Source: Escherichia coli (GTDB lineage Bacteria > Pseudomonadota > Gammaproteobacteria > Enterobacterales > Enterobacteriaceae). From it: 64,000 nucleotides of DNA. Below the pieces are notes generated by a model. That model was not told the origin of the DNA. It worked only from the letters and a program-made list of their open reading frames with translations, and did no database searches. A program made the translations under genes and the position numbers. Below, one piece after another: positions 13,114-58,873 of the stretch (its first letter is position 1; each line of letters begins with the position of its first letter). The stretch lies in assembly GCF_016026235.1 (NCBI RefSeq), contig NZ_CP065613.1. The stretch is one strand, 5' to 3'.

Positions 13114-13284
13114 AAATGTATCTACAATTATTCTGCAATTATAGCGTTGATGTTGGAAATAGCATCACGTTTCGAATAATCAACCATAAAATTGACAATG
13201 AGTAAGTTGGACTTGATTCATCCAATAGAATTTCTCGCCTGACATGGCACACTAAACACCTCGCTGTCGGGTAATGACTCCAAC

Positions 13285-13787
13285 TTACTGATAGTGTTTT
13301 ATGTTCAGATAATGCCCGATGACCTTGTCATGCAGCTCCACCGATTTTGAGAACGACAGTGACTTCCGTCCCAGCCTTGCCAGATGTTGTCTCAGATTCA
13401 GATTATGTCGCTCAATGCGCTGAGTGTAACGCTTGCTGATAACGTGCAGCTTTCCCTTCAGGCGTGATTCATACAGCGGCCAGCCATCCGTCATCTATAC
13501 TACGACCTCAAAGGCCGACAGCAGGCTCAGAAGACGCTCCAGTGTGGCCAGAGTGCGTTCACCGAAGACGTGGCCACAACCGTCCTCCGTATCCTGTCAT
13601 ACGCGTAAAACAGCCAGCGCTGACGTGATTTAGCACCGACGTAGCCCCAATGTTCGTCCATTTCAGCGCAGACAATCACATCACTGCCCGGTTGTATGCG
13701 CGAGGTTACCGACTGCGGCCTGAGTTTTTTAAGTGACGTAAAACCGTGTTGAGGCCAACGCCCATAATGCGTGCACTGGCGCGACAT
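13285..13787 (-). pseudogene. insB: IS1 insB', disrupted
   Basis: InsB-homologous frame split into 13527..13787 and 13285..13494 by a frameshift and an amber codon. Confidence 0.7.
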
Positions 13788-13981
13788 CCGACGCCATTCA
13801 TGGCCATATCAATGATTTTCTGGTGCGTACCGGGCTGAGAGGCGGTGTAAGTGAACTGCAGTTGCCATGTTTTACGGCAATGAGAGCAGAGATAGCGCTG
13901 ATGTCCGGCAGTGCTTTTGCCGTTACGCACCACGCCTTCAGTAGCGGAGCAGGAAGCACATCTGATGGAAATGGAAGCCAC
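13706..13981 (-). CDS. insA: IS1 InsA
   Basis: 91-aa [46 protein letters not shown]... (zinc finger plus HTH). Confidence 0.85.
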
Positions 13982-14295
13982 GCAAGCACCTTAAAATCAC
14001 CATCATACACTAAATCAGTAAGTTGGCAGCATTACCAAATTTTAATTACACTTAAGGTGTATATTTTCTATGCAAGCCATCAATTAAAGAGGTGTAATGT
14101 TCTGATGACTATTTGTAATCGTTATACATTCTGACCTGGAGTCAGAAGGTATTTCTCTGTCTGTGTATTCGCAGGCAGTGTGGTTGATTACATGAAATTC
14201 AGTACATTTGTCCTTCTCGCCTGCCTTTCGTCATTACCGACGGTATTGAATTTCGTTTTCCCCATTGGGGTTCTCCGGACAAGGAGTTGTTTGTT

Positions 14296-48655: not shown

Positions 48656-48768
48656 GGTCAAAGCCGGTATCATTAACCAGAGTCATCGTGACCTGTACTG
48701 CGGCTGGATGATCTCCTGCTACTGCAACTGCTAGGCGACCGCGGCTCCCTTCAGGTAGTCTGTTGTGG

Positions 48769-49607
<839 letters not shown>

Positions 49608-49662
49608 AGGATAACGCGCCCTGAGTTTCCCGATTATCGAAAACTGTTCAGGGAGTCTGACA

Positions 49663-49934
49663 TCAAGAGCGCGGTAGCCTTTTTAATATTTCATTTTCCA
49701 TTTCAATACGTTGTAGCTTTTTCCTGAGCTCACGGATTTCAATTTGTTCCGGGGTAATGGGGGAGGCTTTTGGTGTTTTTCCCTGCCGCTCATCACGTAA
49801 TTGTTTCACCCATCGCGTCATTGTGGAAAGGCCGACATCCATAGCGCTGGCTGCATCTGCCACGGTGTATTTCTGGTCAACGACCAGTTGAGCGGATTCG
49901 CGTTTAAACTCTGCGCTGAAATTTCTTTTTTCAT
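49663..49934 (-). pseudogene. insN: IS911 orfA (insN-like), frame-disrupted
   Basis: Body ...[57 protein letters not shown]... matches IS911 OrfA, but the ATG at 49934 is out of frame and the A6G slippery heptamer reads ttaaaaagg (one A short), ending the frame as ...EILKRLPRS*. Confidence 0.7.
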
Positions 49935-50171
49935 TATGGCACCTGTGTTGTTCTGAGGTGAGCATATCACCTCTGTTCAGGTAGCTAAATTTAGTGTGCC
50001 ACCTCAAGGTTCTTAGTGAGCCGTTTTTAAAAGATATGATAATATATTATTGTTTATAAATTGTTGATGTTTGATTTAGTAGTATATAAAGTTCACCAAC
50101 TTTATTAGGCTTTCCTTTTATCTCTACTTACTGGGTGCCAGAAACTTTAAATTTTAAACGGAGGGGGCATT

Positions 50172-50993
50172 TTGTTTAAAGCAAATCATGTTCCGGTATT
50201 AATGTATCATCATGTCAGCCATTGCCCAGGACTGGTTACACTTTCTCCCGAGACATTCCGGAAACAAATGAAATGGTTGGCTGAAAACAACTGGAAAACA
50301 CTGTCATCAGATGAACTGGAGTTTTTTTATCGGGGCGGAAAACTTCCCCGTAAAAGCGTTATGTTGACATTTGATGATGGATACCTTGACAACTGGTTTC
50401 AGGTATATCCTTTATTAAACGAGTTTAATCTCAAGGCACATATTTTTTTAATTACCAGTTTTATTGGAAATGGTCCGGTTCGTCACTCTCCTGGAAAGGA
50501 ATATTCTCATCGCGATTGCGAACATCAAATAGCAACCGGGAATGCTGATAATGTTATGCTTCGCTGGTCTGAAGTGAACGAAATGTTGCAATCTGGTCTG
50601 GTCGAATTTCATGTTCATACACATACTCATACACGTTGGGATAAAAAGTTCACTTCACGAGAAGAACAGTGTAAACATCTTCGGCAGGACTTATTGAGCG
50701 GGAGAGAATATTTAAAAAAAATGACAGGAAAATGCAGTAAACATTTGTGTTGGCCGGAAGGTTATTATAACAAGGATTATATTCAGATCGCTGAAGAACT
50801 TGGATTCCATTATTTATATACAACAGAAAGAAGAATGAATGCTCCAACTAAAGGAACTACACGGATAGGAAGAATAAGCACCAAGGAACGGGAAAATTGC
50901 GTATGGCTGAAAAGACGACTTTTTTATTATACAACACCGTTTTTTTCATCGTTGCTGGCCCTTCATAAGGGGCCAAGATTACCGGATGACTAA
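50172..50993 (+). CDS. shf: Polysaccharide deacetylase-family protein (Shf-like)
   Basis: 273-aa ORF with NodB-type motif (MLTFDDGYLDNW); first gene of a four-gene cluster whose order deacetylase - glycosyltransferase - VirK-like - LpxM-like equals the shf-rfbU(capU)-virK-msbB2 operon of Shigella/EAEC/EHEC plasmids; TTG start preceded by gagggggc. Confidence 0.65.
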   Translation: MFKANHVPVLMYHHVSHCPGLVTLSPETFRKQMKWLAENNWKTLSSDELEFFYRGGKLPRKSVMLTFDDGYLDNWFQVYPLLNEFNLKAHIFLITSFIGNGPVRHSPGKEYSHRDCEHQIATGNADNVMLRWSEVNEMLQSGLVEFHVHTHTHTRWDKKFTSREEQCKHLRQDLLSGREYLKKMTGKCSKHLCWPEGYYNKDYIQIAEELGFHYLYTTERRMNAPTKGTTRIGRISTKERENCVWLKRRLFYYTTPFFSSLLALHKGPRLPDD

Positions 50994-50995
50994 TA

Positions 50996-52084
50996 ATGAA
51001 TATACTATTTACGGAATCATCACCGAATATAGGTGGTCAGGAATTACAGGCTGTTGCTCAAATGAAGGCCCTGAAGAAAATGGGGCATTCAGTTCTGCTT
51101 GTCTGCAGGGAGAACAGCAAAATTGCTTTTGAAGCCAGTAAGTTTGGAATTGATATCACATTCGCGTTATTTCGAAACAGTCTTCACATCCCTACTGCAT
51201 GGAGATTACTCGGAATAGTTCATGGTTTTCAGCCCAATGCAATCGTTTGTCACAGTGGGCATGATAGCAATATTGTTGGTTTAGTACGGTTATTCACTTG
51301 GAAACATCCATTCAGAATTATCAGGCAAAAGACATATTTGACACGAAAAACAAAAGTTTTTTCAATAAATCATTTTTGCGATGAGGTGATTGTTCTCGGA
51401 ACAAGTATGAAGACACATCTGGAGCAGGAAGGATGTCGAACCCGGGTTACTGTTGTGCCTCCAGGCTTTGATTTCCAGAAATTATACGTTGATTCCCGAA
51501 ACAGTTTGCCTCCAAATGTTCTTTCTTGGCTGGCGTCCCGAAGGGGATGCCCCGTTATTGCTCAGGTAGGAATGTTGCGCCCGGAAAAAGGGCACGAATT
51601 TATGTTGAATTTACTGTTCCATTTAAAAATGAATGGACGACAGTTCTGTTGGTTGATTGTGGGGTCTGGTTCGCCTGAACTGCGGGAGCATTTACAGTAT
51701 CAGATTGACAGTATGGGCATGCATGATGATGTTTTTATTGCTGACAATGTTTTTCCTGCCGCCCCCGTATATCGGGTTGCCAGTCTGGTGGTTCTGCCTT
51801 CAGAAAACGAATCGTTTGGTATGGTACTGGCAGAAGCATCGGCATTTTCTGTGCCTGTACTGGCCAGTCAGATTGGTGGAATCCCTGATGTTATTCAGAA
51901 CAACCAGACCGGGACATTGTTACCAGCAGGTAATAAGCACGCATGGATGTGCGCCCTGAATGATTTTTTTAATGACCCTGGGCGTTTTTATCAGATGGCT
52001 CGCCTGGCAAAACAGGATATAGAAGAGCGGTTTGATATTAATAAAACTGCGTTAAAAATACTCACATTAGCGAAGCAAAAGTAA
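50996..52084 (+). CDS. capU: Family-1 (GT4-type) glycosyltransferase (CapU/RfbU-like)
   Basis: 362-aa ORF with retaining-GT C-terminal features (ESFGMVLAEA..., ...GGIPDVI...); second gene of the cluster. Confidence 0.65.
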   Translation: MNILFTESSPNIGGQELQAVAQMKALKKMGHSVLLVCRENSKIAFEASKFGIDITFALFRNSLHIPTAWRLLGIVHGFQPNAIVCHSGHDSNIVGLVRLFTWKHPFRIIRQKTYLTRKTKVFSINHFCDEVIVLGTSMKTHLEQEGCRTRVTVVPPGFDFQKLYVDSRNSLPPNVLSWLASRRGCPVIAQVGMLRPEKGHEFMLNLLFHLKMNGRQFCWLIVGSGSPELREHLQYQIDSMGMHDDVFIADNVFPAAPVYRVASLVVLPSENESFGMVLAEASAFSVPVLASQIGGIPDVIQNNQTGTLLPAGNKHAWMCALNDFFNDPGRFYQMARLAKQDIEERFDINKTALKILTLAKQK

Positions 52085-52088
52085 CAAT

Positions 52089-53039
52089 ATGTTTTCTATA
52101 AGTAACTTATCATTTATCGGTTTCCTTAAAAGGATTATTTTTTCCTCAGATTCACTACCGGGGAAGTGGGAACACAGAAAATTTCGGTTCATGTACATTT
52201 TGCGATGTTCTATAAATCCGGTTGTCAGTATTCGATATTATTATGAACTGCGTTCCTTGCCGTGCATTGAGGATATTCTGGCAATACACCCCACGTTGCC
52301 AGCAAGAATTCATCGCCCTTATTTGCATAAAGGGGGGCGCGCCTGGACCCGTGGACAATATATTCTTGAGCATTATCGCTTTGTGCAAAATTTGCCAGAA
52401 AAATATTCTAAATTTTTGTTTCCACAAAAATCGGTATCATTAGTCCAATTCATCGGGAAAGATGGAGAGAATTTTGATATCCAGTGTTCTCCCAGTGGTT
52501 TTGACCGGGAAGGAGAGTTGATGTTGTCATTGTTTTACAATAAAACAGTTATTGCCCGGTTAACATTTTCAGTCATTCTGACTCAAAATGGACACATTGC
52601 TTTTATTGGCGGATTACAGGGAGCCCCTAAAAATACCGGACCTGATGTTATTCGGTGCGCAACCCGGGCCTGTTATGGGATTTTCCCAAAACGGATTATT
52701 TTTGAAGCATTTTGTGCGTTGATGAAAGCTTGCAATATCTCTGAGTGTCTGGCAGTCAGTGAGCACAGTCATGTTTTCCGGCAATTGAGATACTGGTATC
52801 AGAAACGCAAAACCTTTGTTGCGGTCTATAGTGATTTCTGGGAGTCTGTAGCAGGAAAAACCTGTGGTGACTGGTACAGATTACCAACCCAGGTGATTCG
52901 AAAGCCGCTAAGCGATATAGCCAGTAAAAAACGCTCTGAGTACCGAAAACGATACGCTTTGCTGGATTATATCCATGAAACTACTATCCGCTCTTTGGAT
53001 GCATATCCTGTACACTCAGAACATCAGAATTTAAATTAA
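52089..53039 (+). CDS. virK: VirK-like protein (DUF535 family)
   Basis: 316-aa ORF; assignment rests mainly on its position between the glycosyltransferase and the lipid A acyltransferase. Confidence 0.55.
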   Translation: MFSISNLSFIGFLKRIIFSSDSLPGKWEHRKFRFMYILRCSINPVVSIRYYYELRSLPCIEDILAIHPTLPARIHRPYLHKGGRAWTRGQYILEHYRFVQNLPEKYSKFLFPQKSVSLVQFIGKDGENFDIQCSPSGFDREGELMLSLFYNKTVIARLTFSVILTQNGHIAFIGGLQGAPKNTGPDVIRCATRACYGIFPKRIIFEAFCALMKACNISECLAVSEHSHVFRQLRYWYQKRKTFVAVYSDFWESVAGKTCGDWYRLPTQVIRKPLSDIASKKRSEYRKRYALLDYIHETTIRSLDAYPVHSEHQNLN

Positions 53040-53103
53040 GGTTTGATGTATCCTCTGAATAAAACAGTAATGATAATTTTGGTAGAGGCATTCGCACTAA
53101 ATA

Positions 53104-54048
53104 ATGAAAAAATATAAATCTGAGTTTATTCCTGAATTTAAGAAAAATTACCTTTCCCCTGTTTACTGGTCTACATGGTTCCTTTTGGGAATGATTGCAG
53201 GTATTTCAATGTTTCCCCCTTCATTCAGAGATCCTGTCTTGGCAAAAATAGGGCGTTGGGCGGGCAGATTGAGCAAAAAAGCTCGTCGCAGGGCGACGAT
53301 TAATTTATCGCTTTGTTTCCCGGAAAAGAGTGATACAGAACGGGAAATAATTGTCGACAAAATGTTTGCCACAGCATTGCAATCCATAGTGATGATGGCA
53401 GAACTGGCAATTCGTGGTCCGGAAAAGTTCCAGAAACGAGTGTTCTGGAAAGGCCTCGAAATTCTTGAGGAAATTCGACACAATAATAGAAATGTGATTT
53501 TTCTGGTTCCCCATGGCTGGAGCGTGGATATTCCTGCAATGTTGCTGGCAGCTCAGGGAAAAAAAATGGCCGCCATGTTTCATCAGCAACGAAATCCAGT
53601 GATTGATTATGTCTGGAATTCAGTACGGCGTAAATTCGGGGGGCGCTTACATGCCCGGGAGGATGGGATAAAACCATTTATTCAGTCAGTACGCCAGGGA
53701 TACTGGGGATATTACCTCCCAGATCAGGATCATGGTCCTGAATACAGTGAATTTGCTGATTTTTTTGCGACCTATAAAGCGACATTACCAATCATTGGAC
53801 GTCTGATGAACATCAGTCAGGCTATGATTATACCACTTTTCCCGGTTTATGATGAAAAAAAACATCTCCTGACTATTGAAATTCGGCCACCAATGGATGC
53901 TTGCATTGCCAGCGCGGACAATAAAATGATTGCCCGACAAATGAACAAAACAGTGGAAATTTTGGTGGGGCCACATCCGGAACAGTATGTCTGGGTTTTA
54001 AAATTGTTAAAAACACGCAAATCAAACGAAGCGGACCCGTACCCTTGA
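53104..54048 (+). CDS. msbB2: Lipid A late (secondary) acyltransferase, LpxM/MsbB paralogue (MsbB2-like)
   Basis: 314-aa ORF with long collinear similarity to E. coli LpxM as I recall it (EFIPEF..., RRRATINLSLCFPEKSDTEREIIVDKMFATA, MMAELAIRGPEKFQ, VIFLVPHGWSVDIPAMLLAAQGKKMAAMFH, FGGRLHAREDGIKPFIQSVRQGYWGYYLPDQDHGPEYSEFADFFATYKATLP). Confidence 0.8.
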   Translation: MKKYKSEFIPEFKKNYLSPVYWSTWFLLGMIAGISMFPPSFRDPVLAKIGRWAGRLSKKARRRATINLSLCFPEKSDTEREIIVDKMFATALQSIVMMAELAIRGPEKFQKRVFWKGLEILEEIRHNNRNVIFLVPHGWSVDIPAMLLAAQGKKMAAMFHQQRNPVIDYVWNSVRRKFGGRLHAREDGIKPFIQSVRQGYWGYYLPDQDHGPEYSEFADFFATYKATLPIIGRLMNISQAMIIPLFPVYDEKKHLLTIEIRPPMDACIASADNKMIARQMNKTVEILVGPHPEQYVWVLKLLKTRKSNEADPYP

Positions 54049-54228
54049 AATTATAAAGTACAAGTATTTCCACTAGTTGTTTGTAAGCGTACAGCCTGAA
54101 CCGTCTGGTCAGAATCTGACGAATTAGACAAAGTGGTGTCCACCAAATAAGTAGTGGGAACCAATGAGGTAGCCTGAGTTTAACGGACACTCCTTCCTGA
54201 AATAGAATGGCATCAGAAGGAGCTAATA

Positions 54229-54528
54229 ATGAGCAGAAAAACCCAACGTTACTCTAAAGAGTTCAAAGCCGAAGCTGTCAGAACGGTTCTTGAAAATCAA
54301 CTTTCGATCAGTGAAGGCGCTTCCCGATTATCTCTTCCTGAAGGCACTTTAGGACAATGGGTTACCGCCGCCAGAAAAGGGCTCGGTACTCCTGGTTCCC
54401 GCACGGTGGCTGAACTGGAATCTGAAATTCTGCAACTGCGTAAGGCGTTAAATGAAGCTCGCCTTGAGCGAGATATATTAAAAAAAGCAACGTATTTTGC
54501 ACAGGAGTCGCTGAAAAATACGCGTTAA
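54229..54528 (+). CDS. IS600 OrfA
   Basis: 99-aa HTH protein. Confidence 0.8.
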   Translation: MSRKTQRYSKEFKAEAVRTVLENQLSISEGASRLSLPEGTLGQWVTAARKGLGTPGSRTVAELESEILQLRKALNEARLERDILKKATYFAQESLKNTR

Positions 54529-54563
54529 TCGAACAATGGCGACAACAATTTCCCATTGAAGCG

Positions 54564-55382
54564 ATGTGTCAGGTATTTGGTGTATCCAGGAGCGGTTATT
54601 ACAACTGGGTACAGCATGAACCCTCAGACAGAAAACAAAGTGATGAGCGGCTAAAACTGGAGATTAAGGTGGCACATATCCGCACTCGCGAAACATATGG
54701 AACCCGGCGGCTCCAGACGGAGCTGGCAGAGAATGGCATCATCGTTGGTCGTGACCGACTGGCACGTCTTCGTAAGGAGCTAAGGCTACGCTGTAAGCAG
54801 AAACGCAAGTTCAGAGCGACTACGAACTCGAACCACAATCTGCCAGTTGCGCCAAATCTGCTGAACCAGACGTTCGCTCCTACAGCACCAAATCAGGTCT
54901 GGGTGGCGGACCTGACGTATGTTGCCACACAGGAGGGATGGTTGTACCTCGCTGGCATCAAAGATGTTTATACGTGCGAAATTGTCGGCTACGCCATGGG
55001 AGAGCGCATGACAAAAGAGCTGACAGGTAAAGCCCTGTTTATGGCGCTCAGGAGCCAGCGCCCACCTGCCGGGCTAATCCACCACTCTGATCGAGGTTCA
55101 CAGTACTGCGCATACGATTACCGGGTCATACAGGAGCAGTTTGGTCTGAAAACATCAATGTCGCGTAAAGGTAACTGTTACGACAACGCTCCGATGGAAA
55201 GCTTCTGGGGAACGCTGAAAAATGAGAGCCTGAGCCACTATCGTTTTAATAACCGGGATGAAGCCATCTCAGTAATACGGGAATACATTGAGATTTTCTA
55301 CAATCGTCAGCGTCGTCACTCTCGTCTGGGGAATATCTCCCCGGCAGCCTTCAGGGAAAAATATCATCAGATGGCTGCTTAA
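54564..55382 (+). CDS. IS600 OrfB (DDE integrase core; normally made as OrfAB fusion)
   Basis: 272-aa ORF with DDE motif. Confidence 0.8.
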   Translation: MCQVFGVSRSGYYNWVQHEPSDRKQSDERLKLEIKVAHIRTRETYGTRRLQTELAENGIIVGRDRLARLRKELRLRCKQKRKFRATTNSNHNLPVAPNLLNQTFAPTAPNQVWVADLTYVATQEGWLYLAGIKDVYTCEIVGYAMGERMTKELTGKALFMALRSQRPPAGLIHHSDRGSQYCAYDYRVIQEQFGLKTSMSRKGNCYDNAPMESFWGTLKNESLSHYRFNNRDEAISVIREYIEIFYNRQRRHSRLGNISPAAFREKYHQMAA

Positions 55383-55529
55383 AAAAAGAACAACTGGTAG
55401 TGTCCGCTATTGCCAGTACACCTCAACATTCCACCATGCATTCCGATTAACGCCGCATAGCCAGTTGAACTTTGCTACTTTGTGAGAGGTAGTACCTTCT
55501 ATCCAGTGCGAATTTAATTAATGGAATAA

Positions 55530-57580: not shown

Positions 57581-58873
57581 ATGAGGGAATGCAGAATGAT
57601 TTCACGCTGGAAATGGATGCTGAAGCAGACAATTAAAAAACTATGGTTCAGGGCAACGTTATTCGCAATTGTCGCGATAATAACGGCCCTTTTATCAATT
57701 CTTTTTAAATCAATGATACCTGAGTCGGTTTCCGTGAAGGTTGGTGCGGAAGCAGTCGATAACATTCTGAACATACTGGCATCGAGTATGCTGGCAGTGA
57801 CCACATTTTCGCTGAGTATCATGGTCACAGCCTACGGTTCAGCCACTACTAATGTGACTCCCAGAGCTACGCGTTTAGTTGTTGAAGACGTCACCACACA
57901 AAATGTACTGGCCACCTTCATCGGTTCTTTTCTCTTCAGTCTGGTAGGGATTATTGCCCTCAATATGGGAGCTTATGGAGAAAGGGGGAGAGTCATTTTA
58001 TTCATTGTCACACTGGTTGTCATTGCCTTAATCCTCATCACATTGCTTCGCTGGATACAGCATTTGACCTCTCTGGGGAGGGTTGGTGAGACAACGGCAC
58101 AAGTAGAACAGGCGGCCATCGAAACATTTATTGCGAGAGCAAGAAATCCCTGTCTCGGCGGATATCCATGGCTTGAGAACAATGAACAGCCGAAAGGAAC
58201 GGTTGCAGTTTATCCGAAGAAGATTGGCTATGTTGAATATATTGATATGGTGAAACTTAGCAAGCTGCTGACCAATGATCCCCGTCATGTATACCTCGTG
58301 GCGCAGCCAGGCAGTTTCATACATCCGTCCATGCCAGTTTTGTACCTGAGTCAGGGCCAGGAGTCGTCAATCAACACCGATTTACTTGAGACGATTATTG
58401 TCTCGGATGCACGTTCATTTGCTCAGGATCCTCGATTTTGTCTTAGCGTCATGGCCGAAATAGCCTGCCGGGCCCTTTCCCCTGCAGTGAACGATCCTGG
58501 AACCGCCATTGATGTCATTGGCAGAGGTGTTCGTATACTTTCCACTTACGCGCAGAATAAATCTGATGAAATAGAAGTGAAATATCCTTCAGTACATGTT
58601 GCACCACTTCAGAATAACGATCTACTGGAAGACTTTTTCTCACCTGTCGCGCGCGATGGTGCCAGTATGAGGGAGATTCAGATAAGAGTCCTTAAAGGAC
58701 TGTCGATGCTGAGTAAAGGTTGGCCTGAGATATTTGCTGAAGCCGCACATATCCTGGCATTTGAAACATTAGAGCATGCAACTCGTGCTGACCATATAGA
58801 TTCTGATAGATATCTAATAAAATCAACTTATTATAATTTATTTAGTGGCGAATATTCTAATAAAAAAACATAG
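57581..58873 (+). CDS. DUF2254-family membrane protein
   Basis: 430-aa ORF with N-terminal TM segments and a large soluble C-terminal domain; family call from memory, moderate. Confidence 0.5.
   Translation: MRECRMISRWKWMLKQTIKKLWFRATLFAIVAIITALLSILFKSMIPESVSVKVGAEAVDNILNILASSMLAVTTFSLSIMVTAYGSATTNVTPRATRLVVEDVTTQNVLATFIGSFLFSLVGIIALNMGAYGERGRVILFIVTLVVIALILITLLRWIQHLTSLGRVGETTAQVEQAAIETFIARARNPCLGGYPWLENNEQPKGTVAVYPKKIGYVEYIDMVKLSKLLTNDPRHVYLVAQPGSFIHPSMPVLYLSQGQESSINTDLLETIIVSDARSFAQDPRFCLSVMAEIACRALSPAVNDPGTAIDVIGRGVRILSTYAQNKSDEIEVKYPSVHVAPLQNNDLLEDFFSPVARDGASMREIQIRVLKGLSMLSKGWPEIFAEAAHILAFETLEHATRADHIDSDRYLIKSTYYNLFSGEYSNKKT

Follow-up and report, generated by a model that had tools for sequence, protein, structure and literature searches.

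The 64,000-nucleotide stretch of Escherichia coli DNA analyzed here (contig NZ_CP065613.1; hereafter, the window) carries a cassette of four genes, shf, capU, virK and msbB2, lying between two insertion sequence (IS) elements of the IS3 family (table 1). A preliminary description of this DNA, made from its letters, had viewed msbB2 on its own, as a gene for an LpxM-type lipid A acyltransferase; we found it to be the terminal gene of a shf-capU-virK-msbB2 operon. As judged from its sequence, the cassette is a member of the shf-rfbU(capU/wabB)-virK-msbB2 type found on the Shigella virulence plasmid (pINV). We consider, with a probability of about 0.9, that its last gene is to be identified as msbB2 (lpxM2), an additional gene for the late lipid A acyltransferase LpxM that was gained horizontally. 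The gene, its operon, the regulation by PhoP and the chromosomal location in E. coli have already been described in papers published between 2002 and 2025.

Table 1. Positions of the features discussed, counted from the first nucleotide of the window (ORF, open reading frame; nt, nucleotides; aa, amino acids; LPS, lipopolysaccharide; GT4, glycosyltransferase family 4)
Feature	Position	Strand	Evidence or remark
fecIRABCDE, neighbour on one side of the cassette	39023-46568		
Degenerate IS3-family element, upstream boundary of the cassette	48654-50006	-	IS3 transposase fragment; RefSeq 'IS3 family transposase, frameshifted'; inner boundary approximate
PhoP box TGTTTA-TAAAT-TGTTGA (TGTTTATAAATTGTTGA)	50051-50067	+	121 nt before the TTG at which shf probably starts
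Candidate -10 hexamer TAGTAT	50080-50085	+	12 nt past the PhoP box; position of the pINV -10 TAAATT
shf (= SfpgdA), polysaccharide deacetylase family, gene 1	50172-50993	+	ORF; PgaB/IcaB-type deacetylase domain matches
capU (= rfbU / wabB / Sfgtr4), GT4-family LPS glycosyltransferase, 362 aa, gene 2	50996-52084	+	ORF; RefSeq 'putative hexosyltransferase CapU'
virK, DUF535, 316 aa, gene 3	52089-53039	+	ORF; RefSeq 'virulence factor VirK' at the homologous position
msbB2 / lpxM2, second lauroyl-Kdo2-lipid IVA myristoyltransferase gene, 314 aa	53104-54048	+	ORF, Pfam, NCBIfam, identity to known LpxM
IS600, downstream boundary of the cassette	54165-55425	+	Starts 116 nt past the msbB2 stop; orfA and orfB match an IS3-family transposase model

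The msbB2 gene and its operon

In the ORF listing of the window, msbB2 runs from ATG to TGA without internal stops. Residues 10-304 of its product cover positions 2-295 of the 295 positions of PF03279 (bacterial lipid A biosynthesis acyltransferase; E 5.9e-96). Two NCBIfam models of LpxM matched well above their curated cut-offs, the equivalog TIGR02208 with 443.5 bits (cut-off 336.05) and NF006507 with 522.6 bits (cut-off 337). BLASTP aligned residues 2-313 with residues 4-314 of E. coli K-12 LpxM at 71% identity, with one gap of a single residue (E 7e-176). The catalytic HX4D motif is part of VIFLVPHGWSVD (residues 131-142), where the dyad reads H137-G-W-S-V-D142; both H137 and D142 are invariant when five LpxM sequences are aligned, and the 177 invariant columns include every conserved block around the active site. 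The earlier claims of an intact LpxM-type gene, collinear with E. coli LpxM and endowed with an HX4D-type motif, were therefore borne out, and the identity of the ORF as an LpxM-type acyltransferase gene is confirmed far beyond chance. The only solved relative found by sequence was the LpxM of Acinetobacter baumannii (PDB 5KN7/5KNK; E 5e-8 over residues 62-305), which is of low identity and was deposited as a lauroyl acyltransferase; its catalytic His aligns with that of MsbB2, and a Glu stands in place of the Asp.

The heading of the preliminary description had also allowed for lauroyl transfer. If MsbB2 were an LpxL/LpxP-type lauroyl or palmitoleoyl transferase, it would belong to the same Pfam family, and weaker matches to LpxL/LpxP models do exist. 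However, these reach 175 bits at most (TIGR02207, 175.2 bits, below its cut-off of 297.8) against 443-523 bits for the LpxM models, and the plasmid-borne lpxL and lpxP found by tblastn are only 26-30% identical to MsbB2. The profile scores effectively refute this alternative, and the lauroyl option can be dropped.

MsbB2 of the Shigella sonnei pINV shares 96% of its amino acids with the product of the window, from which it differs at 11 residues, and this identity makes it probable that the latter is catalytically active. The duplicate acyltransferases of Shigella had been brought up earlier as a precedent; at such identity they represent the same gene rather than a mere analogy. Residues 20-38 (VYWSTWFLLGMIAGISMFP) have a mean Kyte-Doolittle hydrophobicity of 1.27 in a 19-residue window, only the fifth-highest value of the protein; read on this scale, the segment would be compatible with an N-terminal membrane anchor.

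The four genes lie on one strand with all ORFs intact, and the intergenic gaps measure 2, 4 and 64 nt (shf-capU, capU-virK and virK-msbB2, respectively). No terminator-like sites were found on the plus strand in these gaps. Consensus promoter and terminator scans produced counts no higher than those of shuffled controls, and they revealed no clear terminator after msbB2. The GT4 glycosyltransferase models matched the capU product at scores that were all below the curated cut-offs. The DUF535 domain (Pfam PF04393) was found on a VirK product of identical length in relatives, and the virK product of the window had no NCBIfam match. As for shf, RefSeq places its start at an ATT codon (position 50151), at the point where it places an ATG start on pINV. 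An alternative TTG codon, at 50172, is preceded by GGAGGGGG; both are conserved in the window and in pINV, and translation probably begins at the TTG.

Along its full 6 kb, the block shares ~97.5% of its nucleotides with the virulence plasmid of S. sonnei, and dN/dS values between the two (Nei-Gojobori method) are 0.14 for shf, 0.38 for capU, 0.28 for virK and 0.19 for msbB2, consistent with purifying selection on both lineages. Identity is uneven along the operon: capU is 99.4% identical to its pINV counterpart, whereas the flanking shf, virK and msbB2 reach 96.4%, 95.9% and 97.2%, respectively, which suggests a recombination patch or a mosaic history. The plasmid operon, to which earlier work was devoted (D'Hauteville 2002; Goldman 2008; both as cited in PMC4155660, PMC9496106 and PMC2808357), also has the same gene order, the PhoP box and a 34-bp IS end upstream of shf. 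It differs in being carried by a plasmid instead of the chromosome and in having IS630 instead of IS600 downstream of msbB2; further differences concern the promoter and leader and are considered below.

Distribution, origin and related cassettes

A query made of window positions 49500-55500 was compared by megablast with 5426 complete E. coli genomes, accepting matches with a coverage of at least 80%. The block was found on the chromosome in 372 genomes (~7%), the best matches being 99.2-99.4% identical, and RefSeq annotates the matched blocks as polysaccharide deacetylase, capU, virK and lpxM, followed by IS600. Carriers include NCTC86 as well as IAI39 and CE10, the latter two at 99.3% identity. 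Strain FDAARGOS_943 has an msbB2 gene with 100% identity, and an index of public assemblies contains the exact 314-aa sequence of MsbB2 in 4098 blocks.

The preliminary description had assumed that the canonical lpxM lies elsewhere on the chromosome. By tblastn, no other lpxM-like sequence was found within the window (best other match, E 0.5). Among the same complete genomes, megablast with the K-12 gene recovered canonical lpxM, at a nucleotide identity of at least 95%, in 5425 of the 5426, and two lpxM-like places were present in each of the three listed chromosomes bearing msbB2 at an identity of at least 99.5%. It is thus very unlikely that msbB2 is the sole lpxM-like gene of its genome, and the assumption is supported, if indirectly. 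Both genes encode proteins of one family and length class that have the HX4D motif and are predicted to catalyse the same reaction. In contrast, lpxM of K-12 is located between mepM and pyk and occurs in essentially every E. coli, whereas msbB2 is flanked by IS elements, belongs to an operon and is restricted to a minority of strains.

The cassette (49972-54200) has a GC content of 41%, compared with 50.3% for the window. For msbB2 the value is 43% (41% at third codon positions) and for lpxM of K-12, 51.5% (53% at third codon positions). Because of this low GC content, the flanking IS elements and the presence in only ~7% of the genomes, horizontal acquisition is favoured over local duplication. 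The earlier term 'paralogue' accordingly holds in the sense of a second copy, and not in the sense of a gene duplicated locally. Composition, IS flanks and patchy distribution, rather than phylogeny, are the basis on which the msbB2 cassette appears to have been horizontally acquired.

Regarding the flanks, IS600 has imperfect terminal inverted repeats of 27 nt (54165-54191 and 55399-55425), and RefSeq labels it in relatives as 'IS3-like element IS600 family transposase, frameshifted'. The upstream remnant, which may be IS911-like, yielded no second inverted repeat in the repeat search. Its 34-bp outer end (49973-50006) is also found directly upstream of the shf promoter on the S. sonnei pINV, where it is abutted by the right end of IS600. 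Since both cassettes have this IS end before shf, the plasmid and chromosomal copies derive from one ancestral IS-shf junction.

Chromosomal loci of this kind are known from other strains. In enteroaggregative E. coli (EAEC) 042, the shf locus (Ec042-4769-4772) and fec (Ec042-4776-82) were described by Chaudhuri et al. (2010, PMC2808357), and 'Fec, VirK, MsbB2' have been listed for the leuX islands of the neonatal meningitis strain CE10 and the commensal ED1a (PMC7545054). Like the locus of the window, these are chromosomal, include msbB2 and lie beside fec, with all four genes in EAEC 042; we noted no difference of substance, the surrounding IS elements and deletions varying by strain.

In four other chromosomes (loci L009, L010, L011 and L014; 5880-6006), an IS1 end lies 18 nt before the ATG of lpxM2, with an identical junction in each. 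There, shf-capU-virK and the PhoP promoter are gone and lpxM2 is intact. Such a lone lpxM2 might be transcribed from IS1 or else stay silent.

By tblastn, the plasmid-borne matches to MsbB2 formed three groups: those on E. coli plasmids were at least 99% identical, those on Shigella pINV 95-99%, and those of the pO157 type, from over 500 plasmids, ~65%. The ecf operon of pO157, from E. coli O157:H7, resembles that of the window in gene order and in supplying a second lpxM, and its deacetylase (Ecf1), GT4 glycosyltransferase (Ecf2) and LpxM (Ecf4) have amino acid identities of 70%, 59% and 65%, respectively. Its third gene, however, is cptA, for a phosphoethanolamine transferase, in the place of virK (DUF535), and according to a review it is thermoregulated through curved DNA rather than by PhoP (PMC9420067). 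With virK as third gene and an identity of only 59-70%, the cassette of the window is not the ecf operon; the two are related modules of separate lineages. A third arrangement, deacetylase-GT4-lpxM with neither virK nor cptA, was observed beside an autotransporter serine protease gene on plasmid pLG24p2 of Salmonella Muenchen (L016, 338-3442). The LpxM encoded there shares 72% of its residues with MsbB2 of the window and 77% with LpxM of K-12, and it represents another copy of a mobile cassette instead of an outgroup for the canonical lpxM. Three variants of the cassette can thus be distinguished by their third gene, which is virK, cptA or none.

The PhoP box and the predicted role of MsbB2

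Upstream of shf, the sequence tTGTTTAtaaatTGTTgAt (50050-50068) has both PhoP-box hexamers identical to those of the shf site on pCP301, tTGTTTAtgaatTGTTgAt, and differs from it by one change in the spacer. Phosphorylated PhoP binds tTGTTTAtgaatTGTTgAt upstream of shf on pCP301, as determined by electrophoretic mobility shift assays, DNase I footprinting and lacZ fusions, and shf of this plasmid responds to low Mg2+, acid pH and polymyxin B with an induction that depends on phoPQ (Lin et al., PMC5775216). In S. flexneri M90T, the -10 hexamer TAAATT and the transcription start of pINV shf were mapped by primer extension (PMC12562796). Moreover, the chromosomal locus of EAEC 042 keeps a promoter regulated by PhoP/Q, Mg and temperature (Chaudhuri et al. 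2010, PMC2808357). Within the window, the box is the sole match to (T/G)GTTTA-N5-(T/G)GTTTA with at most one mismatch. Expression of msbB2 is most likely driven by a PhoP-dependent promoter upstream of shf, and we infer that the operon is co-transcribed and controlled by PhoP in this host.

By its identity to Shigella MsbB2, the enzyme would sit on the inner membrane, on its cytoplasmic side. There, the HX4D dyad would transfer myristate from myristoyl-acyl carrier protein to the 3'-acyl chain of penta-acylated Kdo2-(lauroyl)-lipid IVA, resulting in hexa-acylated lipid A, which is the reaction of the core enzyme LpxM (MsbB1). MsbB1 and MsbB2 have been described as paralogues that both transfer myristate from myristoyl-acyl carrier protein onto penta-acylated lipid A, yielding the hexa-acylated product; msbB2 is raised by Mg2+ limitation via PhoQ/PhoP, whereas msbB1, the canonical lpxM, is independent of it (PMC9496106). 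Other authors also describe MsbB2 as acting like lpxM (PMC2808357, PMC12562796). With the operon transcribed from the PhoP-activated promoter, msbB2 would add myristoylation capacity whenever PhoPQ is switched on by low Mg2+, acid pH or cationic peptides, next to a canonical copy expressed independently of PhoPQ. By analogy with these systems, msbB2 is expected to provide a PhoPQ-inducible and partly redundant myristoyltransferase capacity.

Several observations weigh against this interpretation. The lone PhoP-box match is not significant by count, as 0.82 matches are expected by chance in 64 kb, and the evidence for the box comes instead from its position and its identity to the footprinted site of pCP301. 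The candidate -10 hexamer is TAGTAT where pINV has TAAATT, and 49 bp of the S. sonnei pINV leader are missing immediately after it; the strength and regulation of transcription at the chromosomal locus are consequently only predicted. The 64-nt spacer between virK and msbB2 (53040-53103) has no good Shine-Dalgarno sequence at the normal distance, the nearest GAGG being 16 nt before the ATG, and msbB2 may be translated with low efficiency or be coupled in another way. The chromosomal allele also departs from MsbB2 of pINV at the 11 residues mentioned above. Finally, in the review cited for the ecf operon (PMC9420067), an ecf4 single mutant of O157:H7 resembled the wild type and showed a phenotype only together with a chromosomal lpxM mutation, so that the contribution of the second copy may be small or conditional.

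The same leader version is present in FDAARGOS_943, and the TAGTAT hexamer with the leader shortened by 49 bp looks like a chromosomal type of leader. In the literature that we examined, neither these differences from pINV nor the IS1-deletion variant that keeps lpxM2 alone were explicitly found; both are minor additions to what has been published.

Some of these points could be taken to mean that msbB2, although intact, is redundant or effectively silent, having hitch-hiked with an island bounded by IS elements and having no measurable effect on the acylation of lipid A. The universality of canonical lpxM, the unremarkable ecf4 single mutant (PMC9420067), the departures from the mapped pINV promoter and the IS-eroded surroundings, with fimD truncated and several IS elements degenerate, would agree with such a fate. 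Nevertheless, all four genes are intact with dN/dS of 0.14-0.38 across the operon, the PhoP box is conserved, the exact protein recurs in public assemblies, and in four related loci IS1 removed shf-capU-virK and left lpxM2 untouched. We therefore regard a mere passenger as very unlikely.

It is even less probable that the specificity of MsbB2 has diverged towards another acyl-chain length or acceptor, for instance lipid A modified by PagP or carrying phosphoethanolamine or 4-amino-4-deoxy-L-arabinose, so that the enzyme would remodel lipid A under PhoPQ induction. MsbB2 differs from LpxM by 29%, its gene is in all three cassette variants linked to others that modify the envelope, and it is predicted to be co-regulated with the PhoP regulon, all of which could be expected of such an enzyme. 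Its score above the LpxM equivalog cut-off and the 177 columns invariant among five LpxMs, active-site blocks included, argue otherwise, as does the myristate transfer to penta-acyl lipid A reported for MsbB2 (PMC9496106). A subtler departure, in which the chromosomal allele would be regulated differently from the pINV copy or have a slightly different substrate preference, seems unlikely as well, if somewhat less so than the two preceding alternatives. Its basis would be the altered -10, the 49 bp missing from the leader and the ATT in shf where pINV has ATG. If true, lineages that carry it, among them extraintestinal pathogenic E. coli and EAEC, might adjust lipid A acylation, and through it TLR4 signalling, when host-like conditions induce PhoPQ, an outcome that work on Shigella does not predict. 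That some lineages kept lpxM2 by itself once IS1 had deleted the other operon genes would agree with a role of its own under selection.

A second LpxM that produces myristoylated lipid A, the role that we favour, matters for virulence because it helps to keep lipid A fully hexa-acylated, the form to which human TLR4/MD-2 responds most strongly. In S. flexneri, the lack of both msbB copies lowered the release of TNF-alpha from human monocytes 11-20-fold, and both copies must be removed to detoxify the LPS of vaccine or outer-membrane-vesicle strains (PMC4155660). For annotation, a strain bearing the island should be counted as having two lpxM genes. As a consequence, knocking out lpxM alone in such a strain may fail to make its lipid A penta-acylated, above all when PhoPQ is induced.

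Surrounding genes and IS elements

On the side opposite to fec, the cassette is followed by genes for a BCCT transporter and a DUF2254 protein and by acuR. Farther upstream, the type 1 fimbrial operon is broken (33036-36981): fimH, fimG and fimF are present, fimD retains only 382 aa from its C-terminal part (35014-36162, matching positions 496-877 of the 877-position profile) with an IS1 about 50 bp further on (36213-36981), and fimC-fimB are absent between the fimD fragment and fec in the window.

Besides the two elements that bound the cassette, the window contains three copies of IS1 (13269-14036, 36213-36981 and 38019-38787), a frameshifted IS4-family element (47382-48673) and an IS2 (about 60000-61300). 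With the IS3 remnant and IS600 included, this load is unusually high for 64 kb, and the density is reminiscent of the genomes of Shigella and of strains resembling enteroinvasive E. coli. Between two of the IS1 copies lies an AT-rich segment of ~1 kb (36982-38018; ~36% GC) that holds only short ORFs, one of them of 97 aa on the minus strand (37016-37309).

FDAARGOS_943, the closest complete genome (L001), is without ~14 kb of the window (34641-48654), which hold fecIRABCDE, the fimD fragment and the remainder of fimF, together with two IS1 copies and the element of the IS4 family. This segment was apparently lost through an IS1-mediated deletion. In the same strain, the DUF2254 gene is split by an IS5, whereas in the window it is intact (57581-58873).

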